From Strigamia acuminata (lineage: Eukaryota), in contig OX442314.1 of the NCBI GenBank assembly GCA_949358305.1, positions 18,042,001 to 18,106,000 on the forward strand: a stretch of DNA of 64,000 nt, written 5' to 3'. The stretch's first letter is position 1. Every line of letters starts with the position of its first letter. Made by a program: the position numbers and the translations under genes. Positions 1,800 to 47,032 of the stretch are shown piece by piece. Below the pieces are notes generated by a model, which was not told the DNA's origin, did no database searches, and saw only the letters and a list, made by a program, of their open reading frames with translations.

Positions 1800-3637
1800 G
1801 TAACAGCTTTTCTTTTTCAACGATTATCAGACGTCAAGATATTTCTTCATTCGCCCCCTACAGGCCTAGATCTCTCAAGACATGTCGCGTGGTGGTGAGT
1901 TAATCTTTAACTTTAGAAAATCCAGTTCAGTATATAATGTAATCTGGGCGCCATGCAGTTTCTACTGCAAAAGAAGAGTAAACAGATCAAAAGATCATGA
2001 TATCCTAGTGTAGAAAGCTCTGATTGGCTGAAAGTGTTTTCCCACACGGAAAAAATAGAAATATATACTTTTTCAGACCTAAATTTTGCGCTCAGTTGAA
2101 AAAGCGTGCAATTTCAAACTTGGGTATGGTCTCGAAAAAAAAAAATTACATTTCTTTTTTTTTCTCATTAATTTTCCATCAAATTATTACTGCAAAAAAA
2201 TAACAACAATAATTTAACCATTAAAAATATTATTTTTTGCATTCTTTTTTATTTCTGCTCGTTTTTTATTTAATTTCTTTAGGGAGTTTACTTTTTTCTG
2301 GCGGAGTTTCCGAGCTAATTCAAGCACCTTTAAATCCGAGCTGAAAGGAAAGAAAAGGCATTGATTCTGGTCTAATGGAAGAGGTGGATGGATTCATCAC
2401 CTGGAATAATGGACGAGTGACCTCGAAACAAGAACCGTGGCACACAAGATTTGTAAATGCATATCCGTAATGGAATAAGGGAGATTACACCATCTCAACC
2501 ACGTAATTTCGATCTGTCTATGCCAAATGTCATTTGGAGGTCATGAGATATGAAACAAGACCAAAATGGAAAAAAGAAAGCCATGTTGCACTACAAAAGT
2601 GTTATAAAAAAAAAGAAAAAAGGTAACAGTTGCAAACTTGATAAGAAATGCATGAGTTTCTTCCATACCCAACAATTCACTCAAACTTGCATGAAGCTAC
2701 GAGAGTGAAATTCCCGTCCCCGTACAAACTTTATACTTCATTTTATCATCTCTAGGGTTAAGCAATAAAACACATCAAAAACTTAATACAAAATAAAATA
2801 TTAAAAGAAGTTTGGTATGTGTTTCTCTTTCAAATTTTTTTAAGATGATAGAAAAAAGTCATGATTTAATGTCGCCACTCGATTGTGAGAAAAAAATCGA
2901 TACTATCGCTAATTGAATTAGGAGCGAAGAATTGTACTTTGTTACAGCAAAATATAAATAAATAAATATAAAGTGCATTCAAATTGGTTAAGCAAATACT
3001 TAAAGTCTGCTTGAATGAATAAAAATAAATGTTCCTAAATAAAATATTATAACTAATGCGCATGCTTGTGCACAGCTGAGATCTGAATGATTGTTCAACT
3101 GAGCATGCGCAAATCGTTGTCGTAGTTGCTTAAGATAAATTAAGGAAAATAAGTGGGCTCAACAGATTGCTTAAAGTTAAGTTAAATATAAATGGCGAAT
3201 TAAGTAAAAAAAGGCCACAGCCTGAAGTGAAAACGAGGTTATCAACTTAAAACTTTTAAACAAATTTTTCTTAACCAACTTGTACATCGATAGTTCAACT
3301 TCTTCTTTTTACTTATCTTCACTGAAACAAAAACAAATAAATGGAACTCCAATTTACCATACCACAAAAACCATTGTATGCAGTTCCTTGCCCGGAGTCA
3401 CTGTACCTAATGCTCATTTTCCAAATGGATTTGATGTCATTTTCAGAATAAATATTTGCAGTAAAAATTGAAACGAACGTAGTTTTCAGTTTAAAACAGA
3501 GCTAAGGCTTTCTTTGAAACATAAATGAAAAATTTAGTACAATGATGAACCAAAGATAACATGGACACTTATCCACATGATCAGTGCATTTTGCCACCGA
3601 TGGCGCCACATAATATATAGCTGCACTGTATTCTGGG

Positions 3638-3769
3638 TGTGAGCGATAGCTCCCCCTGGGGGTCATTTCGAGACTTGTTCTATCTTTTGTATGATTGGTT
3701 CTAGGTTTTATGAATAAATCAGTCTAGTTTAGACAATCATCTTGATCGGTTGTCTTTATCATTCTCACA
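3638..3769 (+). repeat. 5' LTR of Gag-protease element
   Basis: TGTGAG...CTCACA, contains AATAAA, identical to 6446-6577. Confidence 0.95.
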
Positions 3770-4016
3770 TGGCGCAGTCGACATAAAAAGACTTTGGGGA
3801 AGGTGAAATAGTTGAAACAGTTGGAAATTGATGACGGCGATTTGGATGAAGAGCGCGTGGGCTTAACATTTTCGAAAATCGAGTTGCGGAGAAATTTGGG
3901 GACGGAGACGAAGGAGACGACGCGCGTTACACGTGGAAAACGTCCAGATAACGTTCGATTTGGAGACGGAGACGTATATAAGCAGTTGAAAAGTTGTTGG
4001 TGATCATTGTCGGTGG

Positions 4017-6512
4017 TTGACGAGATCGGTGATTGTTGTTGAAAATTTTGCGAAACACGTGGCGGACGTAATGGCGGAAAATTTGGCGGTAATTTTGCAA
4101 GGATGTCGTTCGTCGCTTTTGTCCGTCGTCGAGGACGTCCTGAACGTATTCACGGTGACGATTTTGAAAGGAGAAATCGACAGGCGCGGATTGGAATCGA
4201 CGAGCAATTTGAAGCAAGACTTGATGACGGTACTTTTGCAAAATAACATGGAAATCGTTGCGTTTGAGGCGGCGGAGGCGGAGAGAATCGCGGCGGAGAA
4301 GTTGGTGGAAGACGATGCGGAGATCGTAGAGAAAACGTCAGCGGAGGAATTGGCGAAAGAAAGGTTGGAGGCGGAGAAACTGGAAGCGGAGGAGGCGGCA
4401 CGTCCGGCCGGCGGAAGTGGGGCATCGTCCGCCGAATTGATGGTTTTTCAAATGGCCGAGATGATGAAGATGTTGATGCGGGACAAGTCGGAGACGGCGG
4501 CGCGTAATGCGGAAACGGAGGCGCGTAATGCGGAGAAGGAGACGCGGAATTCGGAGTTGTTGGCACAAAATACTTTGGTGATGAACCGCCTCATCGCGTC
4601 CCAGTGTTCGCAGACGGGTCCCGCAACCACGGTGGTGCAGATGCACTCAACCGTCGACACCGTAAAAGCCATATCCTCTTTTTCGGGCGACGATAAGGAG
4701 AACGTGCATTCGTGGGTGAAGGAGGTAAAACGCGTGGCGAAGCTTTCGGCCTGGACGGACGATCTGACGCTATTGAACGCAGCAACGAGGCTAGAAGGTC
4801 ACGCCAGCGACTGGCAGAAGACTGAAGGAAAGAAAATATCGAGTTTGGAGGGCTGGATGTGGGCTCTAGAAGATAGATTTAAGTGCCGCATGAACTTGAA
4901 CGAATTCTTTGAAATGCAAAAGAAAAGAAAACTGGAAGCATCGGAGACGATCGTTCATTACATTTATTCAAAGAACACTTTACTAGAGCGTTGTGCGAGC
5001 CATATAAGTGAATCGGATCGAGTGTCGATGATTTTGGGCGGAATTGGCGAGGAGTTGGTGTCGTTTCCGTTGGCATCTGGCAACATCGGTTCGGTTGAGG
5101 AGCTTTTACATCGCGCGAGGGGTTTGGACGGGGCGAGAAAAGTGAAGACAACGGACAAAAATAGTAGTAACGTCGAAGTTAAACGAGCAGCGGAGGACGT
5201 GGTGAGGGAATCGACGAAGGAAGCATTTTCGGCGGCGTCGACGAACAAGAACTCACAACGTCACGTGCAATATAGATACGGGATGGATAAATCTACTCTC
5301 ACGTGTTTTAAGTGCGGTAAGATCGGACACGTGTCTTTCGACTGTTTGTTGGCAAGTGCGGGAGCAGTTACGACGGAGAAAACGCCGGAGAAGGTTATAG
5401 CTTGTGTTGTCAAGACGAGGAAACCGGAGATGAATTTGACGGTCGTTGCGTGTAGTGTGGAGGAGTTTGACACGGACGTTGAGGCGCTGATTGATCCGGG
5501 CGCAAACTTGACAATTATCGACGGCAGATTTTTGAAAGACAATACGGAATTAAGAGCGAATAGATCGGGGGCCAGTTTTCATTCCGTCAATGGCCCGTTG
5601 GAGATCGATGGATTTCTCGACATTTCGTTTCGTATTGGCGATATTCAATCGAGAATGAGGAATGTAGCAGTGTCGTCAGGTTTACCTTTTCCTATCATCG
5701 TAGGCACAGACTGGCGTAGGCAAGAAGGTCTGAGGCTGATTTTGGAACCGAATGGCGACATGAATGTTTCAAGAGATCGCAGCAAGGTTCGGACTGTTGG
5801 TTGCACAATATTCGAGAAAGAGGCGAACCGAGAAAACGTGTGTTTGTCACTGGTCGTGGAATATGACAAGATTTTGGACGTAGCAGACGACGACAAGGAC
5901 GGAGAAGTTGACGAATTTGAAAAAAACGATCAAGTTGAAAACGAAAATGGCATTTTTGACAACAACGACGAAGAATTTGTTGAAAACGACGACGATCTTG
6001 GCGTGGAATGCGGGAAGGAGAACTTAGAACTTGACGTTACGAAAATCGAGCTAGTTGCGATCGTAGAAAATGTGAATTTGGGAGAGGACAGATCAAAATT
6101 CGACGAAACGGTTCCGGGGTTCAATGAAGTTGACGCGAAATATGGTGAGGAACACGACGAGAAAGGCGAGGAACACGATAAGAATGAGGCGAATGAAAAT
6201 GAAGACGAATCGAGTCACAAGGGCAAGATTGTACGAGAAAATTTGGAGCCGGGCTGGCTGGAGGACCTGGAGCTTAAGAGATATTTTGCCGAAGAACAGG
6301 AAGAGACTTTGACGGGAGAGACGGACTCGACAAAGATGAGCGAGGAGTTATCGGAGGCTTGTTGTGCATTAGAAAATCGCATTGTATCGAAATTGTTGAA
6401 TTTTTTGTTTTGTTGTCGAGGGCGACAACCCAAAAAGGGGGGTCGTGTGAGCGATAGCTCCCCCTGGGGGTCATTTCGAGACTTGTTCTATCTTTTGTAT
6501 GATTGGTTCTAG
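4017..6512 (+). CDS. Gag (SAP-like N-terminal motif, capsid-like region, CCHC knuckle) + retropepsin-like protease + acidic tail; first ATG at 4071
   Basis: FTVTILKGEIDRRGL..LKQDL; FSGDDKENVHSWVKEV; CFKCGKIGHVSFDC; ALIDPGAN..IIVGTDW; no RT/RNaseH/IN motifs; stop lies inside the 3' LTR. Confidence 0.9.
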   Translation: MTRSVIVVENFAKHVADVMAENLAVILQGCRSSLLSVVEDVLNVFTVTILKGEIDRRGLESTSNLKQDLMTVLLQNNMEIVAFEAAEAERIAAEKLVEDDAEIVEKTSAEELAKERLEAEKLEAEEAARPAGGSGASSAELMVFQMAEMMKMLMRDKSETAARNAETEARNAEKETRNSELLAQNTLVMNRLIASQCSQTGPATTVVQMHSTVDTVKAISSFSGDDKENVHSWVKEVKRVAKLSAWTDDLTLLNAATRLEGHASDWQKTEGKKISSLEGWMWALEDRFKCRMNLNEFFEMQKKRKLEASETIVHYIYSKNTLLERCASHISESDRVSMILGGIGEELVSFPLASGNIGSVEELLHRARGLDGARKVKTTDKNSSNVEVKRAAEDVVRESTKEAFSAASTNKNSQRHVQYRYGMDKSTLTCFKCGKIGHVSFDCLLASAGAVTTEKTPEKVIACVVKTRKPEMNLTVVACSVEEFDTDVEALIDPGANLTIIDGRFLKDNTELRANRSGASFHSVNGPLEIDGFLDISFRIGDIQSRMRNVAVSSGLPFPIIVGTDWRRQEGLRLILEPNGDMNVSRDRSKVRTVGCTIFEKEANRENVCLSLVVEYDKILDVADDDKDGEVDEFEKNDQVENENGIFDNNDEEFVENDDDLGVECGKENLELDVTKIELVAIVENVNLGEDRSKFDETVPGFNEVDAKYGEEHDEKGEEHDKNEANENEDESSHKGKIVRENLEPGWLEDLELKRYFAEEQEETLTGETDSTKMSEELSEACCALENRIVSKLLNFLFCCRGRQPKKGGRVSDSSPWGSFRDLFYLLYDWF

Positions 6513-6577
6513 GTTTTATGAATAAATCAGTCTAGTTTAGACAATCATCTTGATCGGTTGTCTTTATCATTCTCACA
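6446..6577 (+). repeat. 3' LTR of Gag-protease element
   Basis: Identical to 3638-3769. Confidence 0.95.
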
Positions 6578-9500
6578 CTGGGATGACAACAGGTAACAGA
6601 CAAGCTTAGTTGGCACGGAATGCATGACACGTGATTGCTGTCATCCAATCAGCGCACAGTACGAATCAAAGGAAATAACACATGAATACGTGTCCATGAT
6701 ATCCTTGGTTGATGGTACAATTTCATGGATAGAACAGGGTGTTTAGTATGAATTCAACCGCAGCCAGTGTACAGGAAATAACTTTTGGTCCAGCCGCTTA
6801 AGATTAGCCGAGGTCGGCCCAACACACAACCATTTCCTGCGTCTACGTTTTCAGTGGTCGAATTTCTGAGCAATGTAATTAGAAAAATAAATTTTCAAAC
6901 AGAAATATATTTTTGTATAAATATAGCGTCAGTCAATAGATTTGTAGAAAATTAATGAGGATGGCTGAATGCTCTTTCGATTCATGCGTCATGCGGTTTC
7001 ATCAAACATTAATCAAGACTATTGTAATTAGCTGCTGCTCAATCATCACAGCGTGGAGCCACTGATTGGCTGACTTCTGAATTTTAATACTGTGCAGTGG
7101 GGAACGTAAGATTGCAGCTTTCATTACCGTTATTACGACCACCACAGCGTAACGCGTAGACCTAAACTCACCGATTTAACTTTTAAGATTATTGCGAAAA
7201 TCATCATTAGCAAAGGAAAACTTCTTGTCGTCATTTATTCTATCCCCTTTGTAAGCAACGGAGTAAAACTTAATCAGCATAAAGTAGCAATCTACCAAAT
7301 TCACAGTAATTTTGGTTGCCAAGCATTTAAATGCGTTTTATTCATAACCAACATAAGCAACGCTGATGTAACAACTGCAAAGTGACTGTTAAAAAGTTAA
7401 CAACAACCAAAAAATCCAACATAAAATGTTAATAAAACTGATTTCTTTTTTCCAAGTGTAATCCCTTTCAAGAAATTCTCAAAATACATTTTTTCTCTTC
7501 TTTTTTTGAACCACACGCCAAATTTTATTATAATTTCATTCGCAACTCACACATTCCAAGAAAATCCTAAACCAAAACATATATACACCTAAATCCTGCT
7601 GTGAAAATCCTGCAAAAATCTCCATACGAAACGACATGTGCTATTCCACTCAAAGCGGAATAATATTTCAATCACACTTACAAAACTGTATTTTTCTCTA
7701 AACAAATCCTGTTTCATCCACGTTTCAATTCACAACAAGCGAAACCAACACTTTGATCGATGAGTTAAACTCGGGAAGTAAATTCAGAGAGATCAATACC
7801 GTTTTCAAACTGCAAATACGACCTCACAATGGAATGGTGCTAATTAACTTCCGTCATCGAGTATCAAGTCATTATCCAAAAGCTCATCTTACACCCTCAT
7901 AAAACCAGAGAGGTGGGGCTGCCATAATTGAGAAGGAGTTCCAACACCCCATTTTCTGCTCGAGCACCACTGCTTTTTCTTTGGCTCATAAATTCTAAAG
8001 GGATAAGGATCTTTACATGCCATATATCCAAACTCATGAATACTAAATGAGGTAACAAAGAGTTAACGAATGATTAAAAAAGATGAGATAAATCATTTCT
8101 CGTAAATCGAACAAACTTTCTTCTTTTTATCTTATTTAATTAGTACAAAAGTTAAATGAAGGGGAAAAAATGATGCAATTATATGCAGACAACACGCAAT
8201 AATCAAGATTTTTTTTTTTAAAAAAAGTTCTCTCTGAATTAATTAGCCCACCATCTCTTCCGGCACGAGTTGGGAGTTGGAAGGAAGCCTGTAGTCAATG
8301 GACTGAAGGCCCATTGCCAAGCCGCTAAGCTTAAACGATTAAAGCGCTTTCCTTCGGCCCATAGGTAATAAGTTCAGATGGGAACAGACGACTGGTTTAT
8401 ATTTTTAGACCAAAAAATAAATATGTATAAATATAAAAGCCATCCTTTAGCGGAAAATAAAGCCGTTAATCCTGTGCAAACTTCTGAAGACGACTGAATT
8501 GCGATGAACACATCTTTAAGTTTGAAATACTTTTGTTTAGAAAACTTTGTACCCAAAGTTTGTTTAGGTTTCATTGGAATTTGGCACAAGTTTCACTCTT
8601 TTCAAGACTAAGTCTTTTTTTCTCTCTGTTTTTACAGACACATGTTGTCATCCGAAACTCACAATGTAATGAAACAATGAAACAATTTCAAACTATCCGT
8701 CATTCCATGAGTTAAACCAGAAATTTCTCACAGAAGTTTTCAATTTCAATCGCCAACAATTTAAGAAGTTTAAATTACATTCTCTGGATATTTGCTTGCA
8801 AAATGATTAAACGAATGCCTAAAATTTCTCGAATTATTTCTAAACTTTAAGATAAAGATAAAGCTAGTGTCCAAATGGATACAATTCGACTTTATTCAAT
8901 TAGAGAAACCTCACGACGCCGTTTTAGCAAACGACTCAACCGACCCATTCATGATGATTAACGAGCTTAACTTTATTTCCTGTACATTATATTTATAAAG
9001 TAAAAATAGATTTAAAAAAAAGAAGAAAACCACCACACCCACACATTAGCAAGGGTCAGTTTGCGTCGCCTTAGCAACTTATTAAATTATTTTTAGCTTG
9101 CACAGTTGAGTGAGATTTAACTTGCAGAACAGAAACAAACTAATTTACGGAAGAAAGAAACGAGAGCAGAAAATTCTCACCGCAAATCTCATTACACATG
9201 TAACTTTAAACATGAAGTTTGTAATTCATTCACCAGATGATAAACTGAAGCTGAGCAGAATTTGTTTTCACTACATTAATTTCACATATGCCTTTCAAAA
9301 GCAACAAACCGATGCGCCATAAAAATATCCTCGAGACAGGTAGGGGATTAAAGTGGGGGTGTTGAATTACCATTCTTGAAACCAGGGGGTACGACATTCA
9401 ACCGAATCTCCGGCACGGACTTTCGAATCCCGTTCCAAATCCCTGAATCTCCGAATCCCGAATCTTTACATTTTGTAAAAATTTTGAATTTTTTGTCGAA

Positions 9501-12500: not shown

Positions 12501-14553
12501 CTGTTTTACGCCAAAATCTATAAAATTCTCTGCATGTGTTTTCTTTATTACAGTAGTAGTTCACAGGCATTCGACCACGCATGTGTTGCACCATCGTGTT
12601 ATTGATCAATGGTATTGAACCCACTGCAATCGACCAACGCACAAACTACGTAAACCAAATTGGAATTACGATTTAAGCTCACAATTTCGCTCTATTTTTA
12701 TTTTCCCTCCTATAAAAGAGTTTTTTAGTAGAAAAAAAAAATACTTGGCTTTTAAAAATTGTGGAAAACGAACCGAAGCGTATAAATTTCATTTTCACTA
12801 CAAAGGGCAAAACATAATCTTCTTTCTTTTGAAACTAATTATATCTCTATTACTTCCGGCAGTTTTTCTGCAATGACGTCAAGGAAGTTTCTGTAAAATG
12901 CCCGAAAAAATATTAATAAGAATAAAGTGCTTTTAGTCATGAATTCTTCTCAAAGTAAGTTTCCAGCATTTCAAAGGAGACCAAATCCCGTTGTAAATAA
13001 AATGAGGTCGTTAGCACATAACTAATGGCTCGCCTACTGTATAATAAGGAAATCAAATCAATTTTCATTGCCTGTGACTAACAAGAAAAGCAACTCCAAT
13101 GTTTCCAATTTATCATTCCTCGCGGATACAACGTCAAATATTTACGAAAACACAACTTTTTTTTATTTATTTATCACTGACAAAGCAAAAAATCCTGCTT
13201 CAGCCGTCAATTCATCTGGAATCAAACAATGGCCGCGGCTCAAGTTAACATTTCGTAAGAAAATGACAGTTTTATTAAGAAATTCTACTCCCCACGTACA
13301 CAACTGGAAGCTCGTTCTGACGTTCATTGCAATATGATACGATTACTTTGATCCTGACTGAACTGTCAAAAACACTAAGCTAATTTCCTACCTCGTAACC
13401 GTAACAACAAATTTATTTATAACTACAAATATATTTTCTGCCATTTCACATATAAAATGAATTTTCTGAGCCAACTGTCACCCCCAACAGTCACCTGAAC
13501 AGTTTTGTGACCATAAAATTGCACTTGACCACATAGTAATTGTAAATTTTGCCAAGATATGAAGCAAAATATTAATTCTATAAAGAACAAGTTAAGTCGC
13601 TTATTGCGTATCCAATTAATTTACTTAATTTATTGTTCTTTCCCACAGAAAATTGCTACACCTTCTGTATCACATACAGTAGATCTTGGACGAACAAGAG
13701 TAGATAAAAGTTCAGCTTCTTCACCAACAAAATTGTTGGTTTAACTTCCGGTCTGGTCACTATGGATTGAACTGAGGATCAGGTCTGTAAATAGCCCGGA
13801 AGGAGAGCACGCCACTTTGATTTTATTCTTTAAAGCACTATTTTTATACTTGATTTTTCAGAAAATAAGGCAAGATAAGGATAAAGTAAAAATAAAACAT
13901 ATTATTATTCAGCAAACAGAGTGCAGCAAGCAGCAAACGGCCCTGTTCCCGGAGAATCAAAGACTCAATCCGCAGCATCCCTGATGGGCAGATGCATTGC
14001 AAACTTGCTATCAAAAACTTCCTACGGAACACGAACTGATGTACAAAACTGAATGTCAAATTGGCGAATTTAATTTGAAATCCAATTCCTAACACGGCAA
14101 CATACACAGCATAAACTTAGCATATTATCGCCTAATTGAAATCAAAGGTTCCGGATACAATCAAATAGCAAAAGAAATTTAAATTTCCCCCTCACTTACA
14201 AGGGGAGAGCACCAATAAGCTATCACAGATTGTTATAATATTAAACAAGAAGGATTGTTATATCATGCTGAATGAGACCCTAAAATAATTTTATTCCATA
14301 GACAGCCAACAATGCAAACAATGAGCTCAAAGTTGGCACTATTTTGTCTGTGTATACATCAAATCTGAGCAATCAGGCCTAGTGTATGAATACTGTAAAC
14401 AACAGTTGCTAGGTAAAAAATAGTCCCAAGATCCAAGTTCAATTTTATCATTTGAGATTCAATGATGTCATTTCCTCTTTTGATATCACATGACATATGA
14501 CATCAGAACTTTGTTCAACAACATGACTGTCTTCATGAAGACAATAATAGTTT

Positions 14554-14625
14554 GTAGTGGTGGTCCAGTGGTTCAGGCAATGGACTAGGAATCTTTCCAC
14601 ACAGGTTCAAATCCTGGTGTGTGTG
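14554..14625 (+). ncRNA. tRNA-derived Pol III unit (pseudo-tRNA / SINE-head-like) in left palindrome arm
   Basis: A box TGGTCCAGTGG (14561-14571), B box GGTTCAAATCC (14604-14614) with paired T-arm CAGG/CCTG, 72 nt, followed by a T run; acceptor stem does not pair. Confidence 0.6.
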
Positions 14626-14790
14626 AAAATTTTTTACTTTTATTTTTTAATTTTTTTTAGCAGTAATTTTAATGTTTGTAATTTTATGTTTGTTAAAAAA
14701 TTAAAATTAATTAATTAAAGTTTTCTAAAAACAAACATAAAATTACAAACATTAAAATTACTGCTAAAAAAAAATAAAGTAAAAAATTTT

Positions 14791-14862
14791 CACACACACC
14801 AGGATTTGAACCTGTGTGGAAAGATTCCTAGTCCATTGCCTGAACCACTGGACCACCACTAC
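14791..14862 (-). ncRNA. Mirror copy of the tRNA-derived unit in right palindrome arm
   Basis: Exact reverse complement of 14554-14625. Confidence 0.6.
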
Positions 14863-17800
14863 AAACTATTATTGTCTTCATGAAGACAGTCATGTTGTTG
14901 AACAAAGTTCTGATGTCATATGTCATGTGATATCAAAAGAGGAAATGACATCATTGAATCTCAAATGATAAAATTGAACTTGGATCTTGGGACTATTTTT
15001 TACCTAGCAACTGTTGTTTACAGTATTCATACACTAGGCCTGATTGCTCAGATTTGATGTATACACAGACAAAATAGTGCCAACTTTGAGCTCATTGTTT
15101 GCATTGTTGGCTGTCTATGGAATAAAATTATTTTAGGGTCTCATTCAGCATGATATAACAATCCTTCTTGTTTAATATTATAACAATCTGTGATAGCTTA
15201 TTGGTGCTCTCCCCTTGTTAGATCATTTAAAATAATAAAGGTCGCTTCACGTCTCTTAAAACCAAGAAACTAAAAAAAAATAAAAATAAATCCATATAAT
15301 CCATTTACCTTTCCCCATAAATCAGTTCCGTTTTAATTCCCACCTTGCAGTCATTAGCAAAAATGAACCGCCGTAACATTTAGTCATAATTAAAGAAGTC
15401 CTTCAGAGCGAGTGTCCGCAACGTGAAGACCAAGCAACCAACCAACCAACCACCGCAGCAGCTGCGCTTCTCATAATAGTCGAAGGGGAGTGAGTGGAAA
15501 TCTCGACAAACATTCGGATTGAAAGGTAGGTCATTTTCGATGTTCACGGTCAAATGCACTTTCTGCAATCAACTGGTTTCTAATGCCCACCATCAATTTC
15601 TTTTCACATACCAACTTCCGGTGTTAGCAAACCCTCAAAACTTGTCTTTTAACTCCCTTTTGCAAGCAACGCCAAGCATTTGTTCGATCATCCTATAATT
15701 TTCCTTCCACTCGGATGAGTTCGTGAGCACTTCAGACAGGAAGCCGAGATTCTTTAAAACACAAAATGGACTCTTTCTCGACCGACCAACGTCTATCATC
15801 TCGCGCAGCTGGAACTGTTCCCAAAACTCAATCATACAAGACGTTGAAACGGCCTACGGCGCGCATCAGCGTACATGACGCCTACATTTACGCCTAAATA
15901 AATTTATATTCCTCATGTTTCCCGAATGTTGGAAAGCCAAAACCAATATAGATAACATTTTTAAAGTTTCTCACTTTTAAAAACCATCCAACTTGAGCAA
16001 AAACATACGGTAAACAAACATTTAACTTGCAGCTCGTCAATATTGGCTCGATAAACTAACGAACTAGGACCCACACGTGTTTACTTACACAACATGTTTT
16101 TCTATCCCCCATTAGAGTTTAGCCAACGAGGAGAATGTTTGCTTGCATATAACTTGTAGCAACAAATGAGATAAAAGCTGCCATGTTTGTCCTCCAAAGT
16201 TAGCAGTTTCTAATCCTTTCTTACCTCGTTAAATTTGCATACTATCAATGTGTCATCGCCTATAACTTATTCCAAATCAACAAGGATTTCTGTAATTGCA
16301 ACTCACTTAATCCCTCAGTTTACCAATCGACTAGTAATTACTTCTATCTTAATCGGGTTTGGCCCTATCTATTTTTATGCAAACTGAATAACGGCTGACG
16401 GAATGATGCATTTAGCATTATCTACAAATTAACGAGCTTGTAGATAAATTCAAAGAAATCCATGAACATTACAGTAATCTGCGACCAAAATCCCAGATTC
16501 TACGAGATCACTACATTTACATGCCAAAGATATCCGGAGATTCCGAGTTTGAACTCTTGAAAAAATGTTCCTGTTGACGCGGTCAGGAACATTTTTTCAA
16601 GAGTTCAAAGATTCCATGTTTGTTTTCCAGCACGCTTGTTGATTTCCTACTAAAAACAGCAATCTAATCGAACATTTCGCAGTAAAATATTGCACTACCG
16701 TAAAATATCGCGGTTGAAAAGCAAAAAAAAATTCTACTTCGCACTTTTCTTGAGATATCTGATATCTGCAATTCTTCACCTCCTAAATTCCCAATCCATA
16801 CATTCATGCGTTCAAGGTTCTTCTTTTTCTCCAATTTGATTTAAAACATCGATACAAAACCTAACTCGAGCGAATGCATCACGTGTTTGTGACAGGAAGC
16901 AAATTCCCTTAAATTTAAAAAGATGATCTTCAATTTTAAACTAAAATACAATTTTAAAAAATACCGGTAACCGAACTTTTTATTACTTTAATATTACCAA
17001 TAAACCATCATGATGTTAGTATCAGTGATTGCTTGTGACAAGGAAATCTATAAATTCGCCCACATTTTACTCTTCGAAAATTTGATTCTTTTTTTCCCTA
17101 TCAAACTCCTGACACTGATAAACTATCTCAATGTCCATACCACTATCTCCTTAGTAAAAGACAATGTCCAATCTCCTCATCTTCGAGTCAATGGGAATAA
17201 AAGAACGAACCGCCAATGGGCCATATTCGAATTGCAAGTTGGGACGATCTTACTCCCAACACTATTCAATATACATTTTTTTTTGTTCCCTATGGTTTTA
17301 CTGAACGTGGGAACAAAACTGCTGAGTACAGGTAGAAGAGTGGAAAGCCCAAAGCTGCGAAAAAAAAAGTTTTTCGTGAAAGAAAAATTGACTATTTTAA
17401 AGAAAAAATTTCTTTTTCTTTTTATTATTATTAAAAAAAAAAGAAAAAAAGATCATTTTGAAATAAATGTACGTAGACGATCATTTTAAGCAAATATTAT
17501 ACTTGTTAATTGCCAGTCGTTTTAAAAATTACTTCTTTTTGAAATTAGTTTTACAAAAGAAGTTCAAGAAGAAAAGAAATTAGCAGAACAAGAGCAATTT
17601 TCATTCATGTTTTCTGACTATTTACCGACATAATAAATTTGAAATCGTATTCGCATCAATTTGAATAGTTAGACACGGCTTCATCAGTTGGCGAATAAAT
17701 AAATTCAAATGCGCCATTGTTCAAATTCTCATTACAATAAATTACGCGCTGTATTTTAATGGAATTGCCGATGATCTTCCCCCCCCCCCCTACCCCTTTC

Positions 17801-34574: not shown

Positions 34575-34743
34575 TGTGGTATCTTGATATGTATCTGCGC
34601 CACTAGATGGCGCTACGCGCGGTGACACCTGGCGCCGGTGTTTACCTGCGTTAATGAATGAGAATAAAACTTCAGTTTACAATTAGTGCATCAACTCATA
34701 CAAACGTGTCCTTTATTGTGTCTATAGAATCGAGGATACGACA
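34575..34743 (+). repeat. 5' LTR of Gypsy element
   Basis: TGTGGT...CGACA, identical to 39173-39341. Confidence 0.95.
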
Positions 34744-34873
34744 TTGGCGACGAGGATTAAAGTAAATGTAATCCGCTCGCATCAAATGCTGAACTCGTCA
34801 TCCATTGATTTGAGTGGAGTGAGTGTGTTTGAAAAAGTGGGCGTGGCAGTGATAAAGCTGTTTTTCGGCGGAA

Positions 34874-37800
34874 ATGGCCACCAATCTGAATTTACCGACG
34901 GTTGGAAATTTCGACATTACAACTGGGAATTTGGACTATAGCTGGAAGAAATGGAGTAAGTCACTTCAATATTATTTGGAAGCGGCGAGAGTGGGCGAAG
35001 CACAGAAGTTGGCAACGCTGCTACACCTCGCCGGCACGGATGTACAGGACATCTATGATACGTTTACGCCGGCAAATAAACTGACATATGATCTAACACT
35101 CGCCGCGCTCGGTGTGTATTTCAATCCACGGAAAAATCTGAGATTTGAAAGGCACGTGTTTAGACAACAAACACAGGAGCCCGCCGAGGTAATGGACGCT
35201 TTTGTTACACGCTTGAAAACGAAGGTGAAAAGCTGCGAATTTGGCGTTTTAGAAGACGATTTAATCGTCGATCAAGTGTTAGAGAAAGGCCGCGACAAGG
35301 GCTTGCGGCGGCGCTTGCTGCGCGAAACTGACTTGACTTTAGACTCTTTATTAAAGCTAGCTCGCTCAGCAGAGGCAAGTGAGCAGCACGCAACGTCGAT
35401 GGAGCGAACGACGGCCGAAAACACCAAGGAGATCCTTGTAAACCAGCTCACGGGTGAGAAAAAGCCATTTTTTAAAAATCGTGGTAAAAGTGGGCGTGGC
35501 ACATTTCGCAAATTCAACGCGAAACCGCAAAATTCGGACGACAGACGTTTCGATAAATCCCAAGTGGTGAAGGAATGCTATCGTTGTGGCCACAAGGATC
35601 ATCTAGCAAATGATTGCACCGTTGCAAAGAACAAGGAGTGCGGGTTTTGTCACAAAATTGGACATTTTGCTAAAGTTTGCAGGTTGAAAAGCGCCGGAGG
35701 TCGTGCACGTGGCAAGGAGCGTGTCCAGTACGTCGGCGTGAACGAATACGACTACGACAGCGAGTATTCGTGCTGCGTGACGTCTCACGAACGGAATAAT
35801 GGCGTGACGGTGAAGATCGATCAACAAGACGTAAGAGTTTTAATTGATTCTGGTTCATCGGTGAATACAGTGGGTCAAAAGGCATGGACATTATTAAAAA
35901 AGAAGGGAATTAAATTAACACCAACGAAGACAAGACTGTTTGCGTATGGAGTGAATGAGCCACTAGTAGTTAGCGGTGAATTTAATACGCAGGTGCAAGC
36001 GGCTGGAAAATCAGTAAATGCGAGATTTTTAGTCGTTCCATCAGGAAAAATGCCGTTGTTGTCTCGAAAAACATCCAAAGAGCTGGGATTGTTGAAAATT
36101 GATGAAGAAATTGCAAATGAACTTACTAATGATGATTCTTTATTCGATGAGTCTTTAGGAAAATTGAGGAAGGACTTGGCCAATCGAATTACAAAATTTC
36201 GAGATGTTTTTAAAGGGATTGGAAAACTCAAGGAGTTTGAACTGGAATTGTATATGGACGCGAACGTGCGACCAGTTGCGCAATCGGTGCGCAGAATACC
36301 TTTCCACATCCGCAAACAGCTGGACATCGAAATAGATAATTTGTTGCAGGCCGACATCATCGAGCCAGTCACCGGCGCGACGGAGTGGGTTTCACCCGTC
36401 GTGCCCGTGAAAAAGCCGGATGGCTCAATCAGGCTGTGCCTTGACATGCGTGCCGTCAATGAGGCGGTGAAGAGGAACCGCCATCCGCTCCCCACGATGG
36501 AGGAGGTTTTGGATGAAATTGACGGTGCGGAGTTAATTTCAAAACTCGATTGTCGCCAGGGATATTTACAAATCCCTCTCAAAGCGGATTCGAGGCGGTT
36601 TACTGTTTTTGTCACTCACAGGGGACTTTTCCGCTACAAGAGACTGTTCTTTGGGATCGCCAGCGCACCCGAGGAGTATCAACGGATTCTCCAGAACATC
36701 TTGGCCGAGTGCGAGGGGACGAAGAATTCTCTTGACGACATCGTCGTGCACGGGAAAACAGTCGAAGAACACGATCAACGTCTGGAAAAAGTTCTCGAAA
36801 CACTTTCTCGAAATGGATTGACTTTGAACTTGAAAAAGTGCTGTTTTGGCGTGTCGAAAGTCACGTTTCTTGGACATGTGATTTCAAAAAGTGGCATTTC
36901 CGTCGCGGAATCAAAAGTCGAAGCGGTGCGGAATGCAGTTGCGCCAAAGAACGAGACGGAAATCCGAAGTTTCTTGGGCCTAATCAATTATTGTGCTCGG
37001 TATATTCCGAACTTCGCGACTGAAGCGGAGCCATTACGATTGATGGCCAGGAAGGACGTCACTTTTGAATGGGGGAAACGTCAGAACGACGCATTTGAAA
37101 AATTGAAAGAACTTTTATGTAGCTCGGACGTTTTGGCATTTTTCCGAAAAAATGTCGAAACCGAATTAATCGTCGACGCGTCGCCGGTCGGTCTTGGCGC
37201 CGTCCTCACTCAGCGTCAACCGGACAACCAGATGAAACCAATTGCGTTCGCCAGCCGAACGTTGTCAGACGTTGAACGACGATATTCTCAGACTGAGAAA
37301 GAAGGGCTCGCAGTCGTCTGGGGCTGTGAGCGCTTCAGAATGTATTTAATCGGCATGCCATTTCTTTTAATAACAGACCACAAGGCGCTGGAGACCATCT
37401 ACGGGACCAGATCGAAGCCGTCAGCAAGGATGGAAAGATGGGTGCTGAGATTGCAGCCATTCGAATTCACGATTCGTCACCGGCCGGGCAGCGCGAACAT
37501 AGCGGACGCGCTGTCTCGTTTGCTGCCCGCCGGAGAAGGGAAAAGTGTTCTGGGACGAACAGAAGCTTATGTGCGATTTGTGGTCGAGAGTGCGCTGCCG
37601 AGGGCAATGACTTTGCGAGAAGTCGAACAGGCGTCGAGAGCAGACGAAACTATTTGCGAAATCAATAAGTGTTTGCGCGACGGAAACAAATTTAATAACG
37701 CTCTTCAAAAATTTCAGCTGATAAGGAGCGAATTAGCGATGACAAACGGAGTTTTGCTTCGAGGACCACGAATTGTGATGCCGGAGTCACTGCGGAGGAG

Positions 37801-38980
37801 AGTGGTCGAATTGGGACACCAAGGTCACCAGGGCGTCGTAAGAACGAAGCAACGCCTGCGTGAAAAGGTCTGGTGGCCTGGCCTGGACCACGACGTCGAG
37901 CGTGCAGTGCAGCGATGCCACGCTTGTCAGCACAGCAGTGCGACGGAGAAGCCGGAACCAATTCGGAGCACGCCGCTGCCAAAAGGACCATGGCGGGAGC
38001 TGGCGATCGATATTTGCGGTCCATTCAAGGACGGCAATTCGATTGTCGTTCTCGTCGATTATTACTCGCGTTTTCCGGAGGTACTAATTTTGAAGTCGAC
38101 AGTGTCGGAAAGGATAATTGTTTGGCTGCGTCGAGTTTTCGAGCGCTGGGGAATTCCGGAGTCGTTGACTTCGGATAATGGGCCCCAATTCGTCTCGGAG
38201 CAGTTTCGGGTTTTTCTGGAGGAGCAGGGAGTCCACCATCGTAGGGTCACTCCATACTGGCCCCAGGCCAACGGAACTGTTGAGAGACTGAATAAGTCTT
38301 TTGTCAAAGCTTTTCGGGCCGCGGAAGTCGAAGGCGGCAACTGGAAAAAGGCACTCGGGACATTTTTACAATCGTACAGGAGTACGCCACACCGTACCAC
38401 AGGAGTGTCGCCGTACGAACTAATGACGAAGAGGAAAATGCGAACAAAGATTCCGCAAATGATGTTGGAAGAAAAAGGAAAATTACATCAAATTGTAAAA
38501 AGGAAAGATGCGGAGGAAAAGGAAAAATCGAAGCGGTATGCAGATCAGCGTCGCGGGAGCAGGGAAAGCGACATCCAGCGGGGCGACAGAGTGCTGGTTG
38601 CGAAGTCAAGAACACACAAGCTCGATCTTGCATACGAGCACGATTTAATGACGGTATTTCAAAAGAATGGGAATTGTTTGCTGTTGAAAACAAACGACGG
38701 CAGAATCGTCAAAAGGAACGTGACGAAAGTGAGGCGATACTTCCCATTAGATGATGACTTACCGTTACCCAATGATGACAACATTCCAGTAGAGGCGATT
38801 CCAGGTCAGCCGAGACCAGATGCCCATTTGCTGCCTGGGCCACCAGTGAGAGGCGGTAGACGGGGAGCAAGACGTGCGGCCGACCCTAATTTCCAGCCGA
38901 GGAAGTCTGATCGTAAAAGAAGGGCACCGGAATACCTGGGCGGTTACGACACGTCTACACGTCGTAGAAGAGTTGTGTAA
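34874..38980 (+). CDS. Gag-Pol polyprotein (two CCHC knuckles, protease, RT, RNase H, integrase); no env
   Basis: CYRCGHKDHLANDC, CGFCHKIGHFAKVC; LIDSGS; IRLCLDMRAVN..FGIASAP..SLDD; VDASPVGLGAVL; HQGH..CHAC; SDNGPQF..ANGTVER. Confidence 0.97.
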   Translation: MATNLNLPTVGNFDITTGNLDYSWKKWSKSLQYYLEAARVGEAQKLATLLHLAGTDVQDIYDTFTPANKLTYDLTLAALGVYFNPRKNLRFERHVFRQQTQEPAEVMDAFVTRLKTKVKSCEFGVLEDDLIVDQVLEKGRDKGLRRRLLRETDLTLDSLLKLARSAEASEQHATSMERTTAENTKEILVNQLTGEKKPFFKNRGKSGRGTFRKFNAKPQNSDDRRFDKSQVVKECYRCGHKDHLANDCTVAKNKECGFCHKIGHFAKVCRLKSAGGRARGKERVQYVGVNEYDYDSEYSCCVTSHERNNGVTVKIDQQDVRVLIDSGSSVNTVGQKAWTLLKKKGIKLTPTKTRLFAYGVNEPLVVSGEFNTQVQAAGKSVNARFLVVPSGKMPLLSRKTSKELGLLKIDEEIANELTNDDSLFDESLGKLRKDLANRITKFRDVFKGIGKLKEFELELYMDANVRPVAQSVRRIPFHIRKQLDIEIDNLLQADIIEPVTGATEWVSPVVPVKKPDGSIRLCLDMRAVNEAVKRNRHPLPTMEEVLDEIDGAELISKLDCRQGYLQIPLKADSRRFTVFVTHRGLFRYKRLFFGIASAPEEYQRILQNILAECEGTKNSLDDIVVHGKTVEEHDQRLEKVLETLSRNGLTLNLKKCCFGVSKVTFLGHVISKSGISVAESKVEAVRNAVAPKNETEIRSFLGLINYCARYIPNFATEAEPLRLMARKDVTFEWGKRQNDAFEKLKELLCSSDVLAFFRKNVETELIVDASPVGLGAVLTQRQPDNQMKPIAFASRTLSDVERRYSQTEKEGLAVVWGCERFRMYLIGMPFLLITDHKALETIYGTRSKPSARMERWVLRLQPFEFTIRHRPGSANIADALSRLLPAGEGKSVLGRTEAYVRFVVESALPRAMTLREVEQASRADETICEINKCLRDGNKFNNALQKFQLIRSELAMTNGVLLRGPRIVMPESLRRRVVELGHQGHQGVVRTKQRLREKVWWPGLDHDVERAVQRCHACQHSSATEKPEPIRSTPLPKGPWRELAIDICGPFKDGNSIVVLVDYYSRFPEVLILKSTVSERIIVWLRRVFERWGIPESLTSDNGPQFVSEQFRVFLEEQGVHHRRVTPYWPQANGTVERLNKSFVKAFRAAEVEGGNWKKALGTFLQSYRSTPHRTTGVSPYELMTKRKMRTKIPQMMLEEKGKLHQIVKRKDAEEKEKSKRYADQRRGSRESDIQRGDRVLVAKSRTHKLDLAYEHDLMTVFQKNGNCLLLKTNDGRIVKRNVTKVRRYFPLDDDLPLPNDDNIPVEAIPGQPRPDAHLLPGPPVRGGRRGARRAADPNFQPRKSDRKRRAPEYLGGYDTSTRRRRVV

Positions 38981-39172
38981 TGTTGTCAGAATAAGTACTA
39001 ATGTTTAACTAAAATAGTTTATTGTTAAAAATTGAAATGTTCAGGCCTGGACGAAAAACGTGTTGTAAATAATTTGAAATTGTTATTGTGAATAGTTCGA
39101 ATTGTTGAATAATTTTAATTAATTTATTTTAAATACTGTTACATGTTATTGTTTAAAAAAAAAAAAGAGTGA

Positions 39173-39341
39173 TGTGGTATCTTGATATGTATCTGCGCCA
39201 CTAGATGGCGCTACGCGCGGTGACACCTGGCGCCGGTGTTTACCTGCGTTAATGAATGAGAATAAAACTTCAGTTTACAATTAGTGCATCAACTCATACA
39301 AACGTGTCCTTTATTGTGTCTATAGAATCGAGGATACGACA
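39173..39341 (+). repeat. 3' LTR of Gypsy element
   Basis: Identical to 34575-34743. Confidence 0.95.
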
Positions 39342-40387
39342 AAAATGATACACTTTTTACTTTTTTAAGTGCATTTAATTCATCAAGTTTTAAAATGAAC
39401 TTGTTTGTAAGTGTTTGACAATTATTAATAGTTAAATGTTCTAAATTCTGACTTTGTGCAATTAACATTATCAGTTCTGATTCTGTAGTAATACTATATT
39501 CATCCGCACGTATGTGTAGTCCACTCAAGTTTCGAAAATAAAAATGTTTAGATAAATCATCACGTACTTTTTCAGTATTCAAAATAGTACAATACTCTAA
39601 GAATAAATTTTGTAACAATGGACAATAGTTATCGATAAGCCTAAGATTAACTAACGTAAAATCATACAGTGTTAGTGTGGTCAATCGTTGTGTCCGTGCC
39701 AAGACAATATTTAAATCGGGACTACTCAATGCATCTAACGTTAAACTTGATAAATAGGGAAAAATTGTGGTCATAATGATGATATCTTCGGTATTATTTC
39801 CATTGAAATATATTTGTTTGATGGAATAAGTACGCAACGTTTTCTCTGATTTGAACTGATATTTTAACAGATCAAACAGACTTTCCCACCAATCGTGTTC
39901 AAACGTTTTTAAAAGAGGCAGTTGGTTTAGAATGAACAAACATTTCTCGGGTGTGACAGTCGTATTAACGGAAAAGCAGCAGTCTGTCGACAGTCTATCT
40001 GTCGACAGGCTATCTGTCGACAAAATATTCCCCACAGCATTCTGTCGACAGTCATTCTGTCGACACAATGTCCTGCCCAAGCAATCCCTCGACAGTCTAT
40101 CTGTCGACACACGCCAGACAAGCATTCTGTCGACAACAGCTTAACGGCTTAACGACCACCTGTGGTCAGCCTGGGGCCTCACCTGAAATGGAGACTTTAA
40201 CCCTCTCAGCCCTAATTTTGATCTAAAAATGGGTTTTTATTTTTATTTAATTCGTTGTTTTATTCTTTTTTTCTAGAAGTGGCTAAATTGAGTCTGGAAT
40301 CACCGCGAATTTGGCGAAAAAACGGTTGAAAAATGAATCAAATTCCGATAAAAACGTTGAATTTTGTAATTAATTTTGTAATTTCAG

Positions 40388-40981
40388 GCTCGCCCATGGA
40401 GAAATCACGTGTACATGTTTGTCAAGACCAAAAGAATTACAAACCACGACAGATAAGTAAGTTTGTCGGTGTTTTTAAATAAATATTTCTATATAAAAAA
40501 ACGAATTTTCTTCGGTTTAGAGAAATTCAGGATTTAGTGAACAAACAAAATACACTCGTGGCGAAATTACTAGCGAAAAAGCCGAATGTGATGCAATAAA
40601 AGAGCTCTGGTTCCTTCTCCAGCAAGATAGCTACAAGTTAAGAAACGAGAAAATGCAACTGGTATGTGAAATAGAAGAACTCAAAGAGGAACTGGAGTCC
40701 CCGCGGCCGAAATCGGCATTTAGCGACTCGGACCCGTCAAAACAGTAAAATAATCTTTATTAGTTGATCGATAATTAATAATTACATCAAGTTAAAAAAA
40801 AAATTATTTTCTTTCTTTCAGATTGGACGACGTGGTTTTTAAGAACTTGAAATTGGCGAATACCCTGCGAATCGTTTTCCAAAAACTCGTCGTTGGCAGT
40901 GGAATAAATTGGGCCGCCGACGACAAATTGATGCATTTGGTACTCGAGTTGGGACGAAACGCAAACATAGAAAACAAATAA
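40388..40981 (+). pseudogene. CENPH: Captured 3' exons of centromere protein H-like gene (frameshift near 40575)
   Basis: Exons 40388-40456, 40521-40744, 40822-40981; C-terminus RIVFQKLVVGSGINWAADDKLMHLVLELG matches the CENP-H motif VFQNLILGSKVNWAEDPALKEIVLQL; upstream coiled coil. Confidence 0.8.
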
Positions 40982-41010
40982 AAAAAATACTTTTCTTTAT
41001 TTCATTCAAA

Positions 41011-41330
41011 TTATTTCAAGTAATATCGTATCGGGGTTCCCATGATGTCGTCGCCCGACTCCGGATTTTCAAACGCAACGGATAAATCAGTGAAACTTTT
41101 ATGTAGTTTTTTTTAAAAAAGTGTGTTTAATTTGAATAAAATTGAATAAAATTGATTTTTTTCTTCATTTTTAATTACGTGTGAGCGAATCGTTTCTCGT
41201 ATCCGGGCATTATCAGCAAATACACGATGAGTTTTCCATCGACGATCATCGACACTTGTAAACCCGTTTTGGCCACCAATTGGTCGATCAACTGCTTTAA
41301 AGTGAAGTAAATTCATGGCGAATATGTTAA
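41011..41330 (-). pseudogene. Unidentified degenerate gene 3' fragment, tail-to-tail with the CENP-H fragment
   Basis: Two GC-richer exon-like blocks separated by an AT-rich GTAATT intron; ..FTDLSVAFENPESGDDIMGTPIRYYLK*. Confidence 0.35.
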
Positions 41331-41500
41331 CTTTTTTTTTTTCTTTAATTCAAAAATGTTTTAAATTTGCTTTAAGTTGAGCAAAATTGATCAAAATATT
41401 GTCAAATTTTGTCTAAAACTATCAAAAGTTATTTAAATTGTGTCAAAAAATATTCAAATTATGTCAAATTTTGACAATTTCCGTCAAAAACTATTCAAAT

Positions 41501-43652
41501 TGTGACGAGACGACCTCGAAGCGCCATACCCCCGACTGGTGGGATGTTGGCCAACTACGGGACTTACATTCCTTACCACAATAAAGAATATCTAATAATC
41601 ATATGACTATCTTGTATGGAAAGCGCTAATCACCTGACTATCAAGTACACCACCGAATAATCATCTGACTATTCGCATAAGCACATATAAATGGCATATA
41701 AATGGACTCGTTCCATGGCCATGGTGCAGCTCTCTAATTCATTAACAAGATTGATTATTTGAGACAGGCATTCTACTCCAACCCTTCGGTCACCACATTA
41801 CAGACAGGAAAAAGAAGGAATCTATCGCCGATTTTCCTCCCTTCAGTGACGTCACCCCTGCCCAAGAGACGCCTCCCCGTCTAGCCATGCCAGATGTCCT
41901 GCTGTGAGAGAGAGAAGTATTTGGTCACGCCCCCAATTTAAAGGGCGAGTTAAAGACCAGTTAACCCGTCTAGCACACTGTTATGACTGGTTACATAACA
42001 GTTGTGCTTCCCTGGTGTTATTTAGTGGCCCTACCTTTGGGTATTTAAGGGCTCACACCAGTTTATTCACCCCCCTTGTTGCATACACTTTGAAATTGAC
42101 CTTACACATTATATTGCTTGAAACCTTATGGTGAATACAATTTATGTTGTGCGTCAATTCATTGACGCACAGGCAAGCGTTAGTTGTTTGGCCCTACGCG
42201 CAACGGCACAAGACAAAGACGAGTAAACTAGCACTTTGTCTAACCGTAAAGACTCGTCTGGTTAGGACCCATGGCGAGTCAGGATGGCCATGGAGGAGAG
42301 ATGGTTTTGTTGCCGGCATCTGATCGTTTCTGCCCTGGAGACGCCCAGAGAACTTCCCACCAAGGTAAACCCGTTCCTTTTTACTATGCTTTGTGATGAC
42401 ACAGTTCACTCTGGTCACTTAGCTATTCTCTCTCACCGCTCCTTATGTACCGTGGTGCCTAAGCCTCTGCTGGCCATGTGTGTTACACCTTGCTGATATT
42501 TCCGGTTGTGCGATAAGACTACTCACAATGACTCAGTTCGCTGGTTGTGAGTCCGCCTCAAACTCAGCATAAGGTGTTTAACTAGTTTCGACTGGCCTTT
42601 TGCGTGGCGGTTAGTTTTATCTCTCCCGTCTCTAACTCCTTTTCCGGCGTTCGCCGACTATTCCGTGCCACCAAGGGTGCCTAAGTTCGTCTGGCCCTTG
42701 TGTGTAATTCTTCACCCCACGGTGTAATAAGCTCACCTTGTTGAGCAACGTGGGATTGCTTTTACTCTTCAATTAATAATATTTACCTAGCTTGCCTTTC
42801 TGATCTGGACCAAGTGGTCAGAAAGGGTTGTTTGTGACGGACCCAGTATCACAAAGAACCACTCATGCAATCAACTCAACATAATTGCCATATGATGAAA
42901 TATGGTATCCATTCCGCATTACTGATCTGTGTAGTTAAATACCCGATATGTCATGTTTAGTTATGCAACTGGAAGCGTTGCTAATCCTGTCAGCGTAAAT
43001 GTGACCATTGTTGTCACCTACGATTGTTTAGATTGGCGTGTTATACTCACGCCTGTTTGTGCTTAATCCTGTCAGCGTAACTTCATTTAGTGTTATATAA
43101 ATTTACTATAGAGTGTTTAGTCACTCTACAGAGAGTCACGTTTAGATCCTGTCCATGCGCTTGAAATACTTTGATATTCTTGTTTTTGTGCTTATTAATA
43201 TTAGGCCTAGATTGACCATCAATAAATGGTAAATTGTCATGTTTTGATAAATCTGTTGTGTTTGCTCATTCCAATATATTTAGTTCGTATCATCAATCTA
43301 TTAATTGTTTTCATGCTGTTGCTATTTAATTGTCTAGTTATATTGTTACGAAGTCAGATCCCTTTATCTTATTTTATTACTTGAATTTCAATGAGGCCGA
43401 CAAGAGTGAAGAACTTCACAGTTCTCCCCTCTTGTGGCGACGCAGACATTCCTCTCAAGGTCGGAGCCTTGGAGAGTTTCTATGGATGGCCATCTGCACC
43501 TTTCTATGGCACTCCATTTGGATGGAGTAGATCCTGTCGCCATCTTTCTTTCTACAGTAGTTCATGTGAACTATGGGAGACTAATGCTAGTCCCCGGATG
43601 TAGAGTAATAATGGTCGTGGTATATATTGATAAGCTAGGTTTTCCCGTCACA
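41501..43652. mobile_element. 2152-bp solo LTR-like insertion (TG..CA) with no long ORF
   Basis: Ends TGTGACG / CGTCACA; 4-bp TSD AAAT; removal restores the local TATTCAAATTATGTCAAATTTTGACAATTT repeat. Confidence 0.8.
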
Positions 43653-43901
43653 AAATTATGTCAAATTTTGACAATTTCTGTCAAAATCCATCAATAATTT
43701 ATCAAAAATTATTCAATCTCTGTCAAATTCCATCAAAATTTATCAAAAGTTATTCAAATTCCGTCGAAATTTATCATCAATTTATCAAATTTCATCAAAA
43801 ACTTCGTCACATTTCTCTAAATTCCGAAAATATTGATCAAAAAAATTCCAAAATTTCTCAAAACACATTAATAACTCATAATTACACCACCGTAAAATCA
43901 C

Positions 43902-45780: not shown

Positions 45781-46342
45781 TTCTATTTTTTTCTAAACGA
45801 TTTGAACAAATTAAACGCAAAATTCAATGAAATTTTCATTGTTTTTTTTTTAATATTACCGGGTACCGACCTTTTTGTTTCGAATTTCAAATTACGTTTC
45901 CATCACTGCGCATTTTTTTGAACACAAAAACCGCATTGAACATGAAATAACCGTTGTAATCTGACATATGGGAATGTTGATAGATGAGCGCCACGCACCT
46001 CCCATTTGTCCCAAATACTGAAAATTATTCCGTCTCTGAATTTTAAAATGATTTAAATGAATTTGTTTTGGGATTTTGCGATTTCTTTTACCGGAGTTTC
46101 ACGGGATTTATTTGACACGGTTGAGACGAGACGAAAAGTGGCAGTGCGAGGTTGATAAAATAATTCTGGTGGCGCTCCCGCTGGAAATTACTCGCGAATT
46201 CAATCACTTCCAACGTTACCTGCAAGAGAATGTAATTTAAAATCGATCTTTTTTGATTACCGTAGTTGTGTGTTTAGTACCAATCTGGTGACGACAGACG
46301 TTGTTGTTATTGTAACGGTAATAATTTTCTCGTCGATTTTTC

Positions 46343-46874: not shown

Positions 46875-47032
46875 CTACAAACAAGAGAACAATACTAAAC
46901 TTGTTTGTTTGCATTTCGACCACAGGATTTGAAATCACAAGTCTATGTTTGGCTCTAGTTAATGCCACGTACAGAATGTTGCTTTCGTCGCCATCTAACC
47001 AGGATTAAAAAACTAGTTGAGTTTTCAAATTT

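Follow-up and report, generated by a model that had tools for sequence, protein, structure and literature searches.

The 2,940-bp element at positions 3638-6577 of the window (the whole 64,000-nucleotide stretch of DNA analysed here) is probably a young member of a Pol-less, multi-copy family derived from Ty3/Gypsy retrotransposons, whose own protein builds particles and whose reverse transcriptase (RT) and integrase are borrowed. A primer-binding site (PBS), a polypurine tract (PPT), identical long terminal repeats (LTRs) and a 5-bp target-site duplication (TSD) are products of RT and integrase. The element encodes neither enzyme and yet bears a PBS, a PPT and a 5-bp TSD, which indicates that RT and integrase act in trans. 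A long acidic tail with signs of selection is the unusual part of this element. How Pol-less LTR elements reach enzyme-bearing particles, and why they keep Gag and protease, has been approached in plants through genome statistics without experiment, according to the available text of one study (PMC9744471). A compact, spreading 2.9-kb example from an animal, with an intact protein and natural variants, makes this question testable.

The Ty3/Gypsy hallmarks of TG...CA LTRs, a PBS, a PPT and a 4-6 bp TSD are all present, and every feature of the element lies on the plus strand; no strand is assigned to the surrounding host repeat. The 5' LTR (3638-3769; 132 bp, TG...CA) is letter-for-letter identical with the 3' LTR (6446-6577). 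Directly 3' of the former lies the PBS-like sequence TGGCGCAGTCG (3770-3780), the complement of a tRNA 3' end; the primer is putatively tRNA-Ser, and a literature search on this motif gave no relevant match. The 5' leader that follows (3781-4070) carries frame-breaking indels of 1-2 nt in relatives, and unusual folding was looked for in it and not found (z = 0.75). The PPT, A5G6 (6432-6442), lies 3 nt upstream of the 3' LTR, which itself holds the stop codon of the open reading frame (ORF; 6510-6512) and an AATAAA signal (6521-6526).

Copies of CTGGG flank the element on the left (3633-3637) and the right (6578-6582), and the left one is also supported by empty-site joints. The insertion is nested inside a MITE-like host repeat that spans 3545-6713 overall, with a left part at 3545-3637, a right part at 6578-6713 and 31-bp inverted ends (3545-3575 and 6683-6713) that are 84% alike. 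This repeat is present in high copy, at several hundred times flank depth (bin depths in run X1 of about 29,000 for the left part and 40,000 for the right part). In other copies of the repeat the empty site is visible as position 3632 joined to 6578 with 5 shared letters; because these joints hold a single CTGGG in four of four runs, the CTGGG duplication is a true TSD. In run X3, a contig at flank depth (record 16) reaches 3637, and since its last 14 letters do not match the LTR, the insertion site is probably empty in that run. The identical LTRs, perfect TSD, PBS and PPT reported in the initial annotation are confirmed; it had missed the host repeat, as well as the SAP-like domain and the D-P-G protease triad described below.

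A single ORF (4071-6512) encodes 813 residues and a stop, with a SAP-like domain, a coil, a capsid, a CCHC knuckle, a protease and the acidic tail in that order. The open frame runs from 3990 to 6512, or 840 codons from stop to stop, and the 813 residues are counted from the ATG at 4071. This codon is the likely start, as the Gag of relatives begins at the matching place and the frame-disrupting indels shown for more divergent copies lie upstream of it (12 of 79 indel rows are listed, with those in the leader at 3805, 4011, 4016, 4040 and 4069). At its other end, the ORF extends 67 nt into the 3' LTR and stops 9 nt upstream of AATAAA.

The domains of the Gag and protease portions are recognized with different degrees of ease. 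Pfam alone calls no SAP domain in the ORF; a profile built from the SAP domains of 16 relatives matches residues 23-44 at 14.5 bits, against 10.1 bits for the best of 500 shuffles, and a divergent SAP-like domain is accordingly placed at 4137-4250 (about residues 23-60). The capsid (4641-5135; about residues 191-355) is predicted to be two-lobed and of the Arc/Ty3 type, with pLDDT mostly above 90 and a Foldseek match to the dArc1 capsid at E = 3.1e-5. This prediction comes from an alignment-based model of residues 170-600 (76 sequences; mean pLDDT 79), which as a whole resembles the dArc1 capsid and retropepsins in the PDB, so that a capsid of Ty3/Arc fold followed by a retropepsin, a Ty3/Gypsy feature, is found at the level of predicted fold. 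A single-sequence model of the entire ORF was of low quality (mean pLDDT 37). The single CCHC zinc knuckle (5301-5345) scores above its Pfam cut-off (zf-CCHC, PF00098; E = 2.9e-5), and its region has a net charge of +6. The retropepsin-type protease (5406-5804; about residues 446-578) is seen by Pfam below its cut-off (aspartyl protease, E = 0.0017), by the fold model and by Foldseek.

The protease triad (5493-5501) is D-P-G rather than D-T/S-G. The same triad occurs in two relatives, P0006 and P0010; because P0006 carries an RT in the same frame, a D-P-G protease need not be dead and may be active. P0010, from Dinothrombium, is annotated with a Gag-protease that leads straight into fragments of integrase, RT and RNase H being absent; it could be a further deleted form or an artefact of the gene model. 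Broader searches with the element's protein returned little: a PDB sequence search matched the zinc knuckle alone (E at least 0.033), a capsid-protease query of the ESM Atlas gave only generic retroelement clusters (best 0.92), and a metagenome locus search yielded 88 pattern matches, none of them confirmed.

Pol is missing from the element. Pfam families for RT, RNase H and integrase are all absent at E ≤ 1, and a tblastn search with 10 pol regions, covering all six frames of the element and of its flanking 3 kb on either side, found no convincing pol remnant; the best match (E = 0.004, 24% identity) covers the protease region, and the remaining matches have E values of at least 0.068. The earlier description, one uninterrupted ORF of more than 800 codons that has a CCHC knuckle and a protease but lacks RT, RNase H and integrase, is confirmed. 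The order protease-RT-RNase H-integrase is present in the relatives P0012, P0055 and P0047, and its absence here makes the element a derivative rather than an autonomous member of Ty3/Gypsy.

Judged by sequence, the closest relatives are complete arachnid Ty3/Gypsy elements. A phmmer search of 1.84 billion representatives gave 1019 matches at E ≤ 0.001, the best capsid-to-protease ones being 30-39% identical. Seven of the 10 relatives looked up are named, their sources being the spider Nephila, the soft tick Ornithodoros and the mites Dinothrombium and Leptotrombidium; the source record of one relative calls it 'blastopia polyprotein-like'. A tree of capsid-protease sequences, comprising the ORF, 24 relatives and the second Gypsy element of the window, nests the ORF among arachnid-type elements, with a support of 0.999 for the enclosing group. 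Pfam, applied to 55 of the 150 matches listed, recovers SAP-capsid-CCHC-protease-RT-RNase H-integrase polyproteins. P0012, P0055 and P0047 resemble the element in having SAP, capsid, CCHC and protease in one ORF, but extend into RT, RNase H and integrase where the element has its acidic tail instead. Among the 150 of 1019 matches listed, 34 have a recognizable protease, six of which end within 40 residues past it and were dropped; the post-protease regions of the 28 retained relatives either run on into pol (21) or match nothing (7).

Evidence on copies comes from contigs of three public DNA runs (X1, X2 and X3) from two studies, which hold 75-87% of the element's words, contig depth giving only a rough indication of copy number. 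Flank contigs in X1 stand at a depth of 83-84 (about 100 with two haplotypes summed), near-identical internal unitigs reach 1722 (4626-5039) and 1737 (5114-5486), and unbranched unitigs cross the protease, the tail and the 3' end at 1787 (5500-5758; 0 differences) and 1800 (5729-6400; 2 differences). Internal depth is therefore about 18-21 times flank depth, and the tail is as deep as the capsid. The corresponding ratios are 13-17 times in X2 (4952-5013 vs 297-390) and 4-6 times in X3 (103-155 vs 23-25). These near-identical multi-copy contigs show repeated recent insertion in the Pol-less form, and the many copies with the same protease-tail junction uphold the earlier proposal that the element transposed recently in this form. 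Among the 14 X1 contig pieces in 5500-6430, none departs from the near-identical path at the protease-tail junction and no near-identical branch was seen; the unitigs are shorter than the element and omit rare variants, so that a rare pol-bearing near-identical copy could escape such a search. LTR depth in X1 (6494-6505; 3601) is twice the internal depth, a ratio that allows for few further elements carrying this LTR. At five sites (4249, 4625, 5002, 5805 and 6114; four replacements and one synonymous change) nearly all contigs differ from the window copy; these may be changes private to that copy, a variant in the population or errors of assembly.

More diverged copies also bear the tail. They include X3 record 10 (5746-6254; 88% alike, with a 3-nt deletion) and, in X1, record 7 (5909-6100; 84%, with a 54-nt deletion), record 6 (5729-5864; 90%) and record 4, which is about 80% alike over 5634-5793 and rejoins at 6180. 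The two tail indels with a known net length, 3 and 54 nt, are divisible by three; a 78-nt skip is listed as well. A separate subfamily, at an X1 depth of about 690, is 86-89% alike up to 5580 and less than 80% alike beyond, where its unitig has 469 further letters. Pol is lacking from the near-identical copies and from the diverged copies that carry the tail, and this subfamily is the best candidate for a helper.

The tail itself comprises 235 residues (residues 579-813; 5805-6509), passes the PPT and ends in the 3' LTR. Its D/E content is 29-30%, its net charge -41 and its pI 4.2. Its G/A bias (G 0.48, A 0.51) is restricted to the first two codon positions and absent at the third, and the other two frames across it contain 10 and 17 stops. 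No tail homologue was detected among the protein matches, and an uninformative single-sequence model gave no confident fold. Among 28 relatives taken from the 150 of 1019 matches listed, none exceeds 18% D/E after the protease; the tail therefore seems specific to this element's family, as far as the searched libraries reach. Derivation from an acidic integrase C-terminus was considered and is a lead only, the best match having an E value of 0.13; the last 95 residues of relatives contain 11-20% D/E and a P-x-[WY]-L-x-D motif that is loosely similar by eye.

The changes among copies bear on whether this tail is maintained. The 28 tail differences, found among the 40 of 129 rows listed for the stretch, comprise 14 synonymous changes, 14 replacements and no stops, against a neutral expectation of 23-30% synonymous (p = 0.002-0.024); this test lumps several copies together and falls short of a proper dN/dS. 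Gag rows are synonymous in six of eight cases, and rows of the protease region in five of 13, with no excess (p = 0.23-0.38). Given the synonymous excess among diverged copies, the acidic tail appears to be kept by selection. That copies 84-90% alike keep the tail, together with this excess, supports the initial annotation in viewing it as a stable design rather than a fresh deletion.

A somewhat unlikely alternative is that the family is mobile and its tail has no protein function, being filler left after an old loss of pol and held open so that the stop falls next to the poly(A) signal and the transcript escapes nonsense-mediated decay. The position of the stop, 9 nt before AATAAA in the 3' LTR, would suit such filler, as would a tolerated 54-nt deletion, replacements making up half of the listed changes, and a tail with neither a detected homologue nor a confident fold, though the single-sequence model is uninformative on the latter. 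Avoidance of stops, however, removes only 3-5% of possible changes and cannot lift the proportion of synonymous ones from about 27% up to 50%, and the acidic bias is confined to codon positions 1-2.

If the tail does act as protein, we tentatively favour a simple role, in which it would occupy the place of RT, RNase H and integrase in the particle, would probably be cut off after the protease and would serve as a disordered polyanion tempering the basic nucleocapsid, with selection on charge and an open frame more than on exact sequence. Such a polyanion would regulate nucleocapsid-RNA condensation during assembly or uncoating. The acidic spacer of yeast Ty3 has a similar role in nucleocapsid-RNA condensation. 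A Cys-hydrophobic cleavage-like motif after the protease resembles one before it and is altered in some diverged copies (V576, C578). An unlikely, more elaborate version makes the tail a purpose-built module in place of pol, a polyanion released by the protease that mimics nucleic acid, with which Gag would recruit or out-compete the helper's basic RT/integrase-bearing protein in mixed particles; if true, it would represent an undescribed strategy of protein-level retrotransposon hyperparasitism in animals. If functional, the tail would be a type of domain new to retrotransposon polyproteins; if functionless, it would leave one further semi-autonomous family, valuable mostly for showing that the wheat design recurs in arthropods.

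Under the preferred reading of a mobile, Pol-less family, the single protein would likely assemble and mature particles around the element's own RNA, bound via the CCHC region, with maturation by its own protease. RT and integrase would likely be borrowed from a complete relative. Since Gag and Pol form a single reading frame in the nearest complete relatives, the simplest route would be mixed particles, in which a helper's single-ORF Gag-Pol is co-assembled with the Gag-protease protein. Mobilisation of Gag-protease families by distant partners has a precedent in the available text of PMC9744471.

It is improbable that the Gag-protease protein is unneeded for the element's own movement, with a helper packaging the RNA and the protein kept as a host-serving or helper-restraining Gag, as in zebrafish Bik. 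Host roles are described for the young, mobile, Gag-only Bik families in the available part of PMC12067270; the D-P-G triad could be weak, and the acidic tail could conceivably poison mixed particles. Against this stand depths that vary by sample (about 20, 15 and 5 times flank) and a site in X3 that looks empty, as expected of a selfish element, as well as an intact capsid, CCHC knuckle and protease, the D-P-G triad being found in a relative with an in-frame RT. Far less probable still is that one copy of an autonomous family has recently undergone a unique internal deletion or replacement: pol does follow in 21 of the 28 relatives whose post-protease region is readable, but the tail is as deep as the capsid and the protease, no near-identical path branches off after the protease, copies diverged by 10-20% share the tail, no pol remnant is present, and a single copy made by simple deletion, which the initial annotation had named as the finding that would overturn its view, was sought in the run contigs, where a deep, unbranched tail path was seen instead.

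A helper was also sought within the window, whose one autonomous element has another PBS and no DNA likeness to the Pol-less element. This second Gypsy element (34575-39341, plus strand) is complete and very young, with identical 169-bp LTRs and an AAAAT duplication; its ORF (34856-38980) encodes RT, RNase H and integrase, and its PBS and Gag lineage differ. It gives only a weak nucleocapsid-protease match to the Pol-less ORF (E = 7e-5) and is unlikely to be the helper.

Elsewhere in the window, a 9-kb stretch at about 39971-48937, with long, inverted, internally repeated ends and an apparent duplication of 10-11 bp on both sides, separates two minus-strand LRR-like ORFs (48930-49637 and 39289-40140), the latter of which ends in the Gypsy LTR; one LRR gene may have been split by two insertions. 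An inverted repeat at 14195-15221, with 454-nt arms that are 99% complementary and 119 nt apart, is likely a foldback or MITE-type element. Tandem paralogues of a cationic amino acid transporter occupy 52239-61955 (minus strand), of which the portion at 52239-53384 shares 55-63% identity with CAT4 of insects, crustaceans and myriapods; this marks the host as arthropod-like and no more precisely. A 21-nt tandem repeat array lies at 44641-45048.

Several Pol-less systems invite comparison. TRIM and LARD elements were rejected, as they have no coding capacity and this element has an 813-residue ORF; Anakin elements (PMC7642597) and the CR elements of grasses (PMC4079200), as far as the available texts describe them, are not close. 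The TR-GAG elements of Coffea and other plants, selected for having no similarity to aspartic protease, share with the element a length below 4 kb (here 2,940 bp), LTRs, a PBS and a PPT, a single ORF, a 5-bp TSD, several copies (here at least two, by depth) and the lack of a found partner, according to the available text (PMC4350172). The element differs from them in its protease, SAP-like domain, tail and animal host (PMC4350172). The initial annotation was right to liken it to a Pol-less kind, but the TR-GAG label does not hold, since the protease, seen by Pfam (below cut-off) and by fold, is excluded by a GAG-only definition (PMC4350172). The 28 GAG/PROT families of sugar beet share the design of less than 4 kb, LTRs with a PBS and a PPT, one ORF and a 5-bp TSD, as well as several copies and the lack of a found partner, in the available portion of their description (PMC13570524).

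Animals also harbour such elements: zebrafish Bik-1 and Bik-2 and chicken ENS-1 are recently mobile, keep gag and lack pol, which adds to the earlier statement that Gag-only elements are described mainly from plants, going by the accessible text of PMC12067270. They are described as endogenous retroviruses, whereas the element is of Ty3/Gypsy type, with Gag, protease and an acidic tail (PMC12067270). A literature search found no arthropod Gag-protease family, SAP-bearing Gypsy Gag or acidic tail replacing pol, which is weak evidence, as coverage was thin for subscription journals and Repbase.

The nearest known counterpart is the 'semi-autonomous' Gag-protease type, represented by the Gypsy families RLG_Sabrina_SA and RLG_WHAM of wheat and barley (PMC9744471). 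Throughout these families RT and integrase are missing and the coding capacity is limited to GAG and protease; they are proposed to depend on a distant partner, identified there as Wilma, that shares the PBS and LTR ends and otherwise has little sequence likeness (PMC9744471). The element likewise has an intact GAG-protease ORF and no RT or integrase, and resembles both families in its many copies (PMC9744471). It differs from the plant Sabrina_SA in size (2.94 kb vs 8.1-8.3 kb), and the available text on Sabrina_SA and WHAM mentions no acidic tail fused to the protease (PMC9744471). The element is thus a variant of the semi-autonomous Gag-protease design, found in an animal, currently spreading and unusual in its tail.
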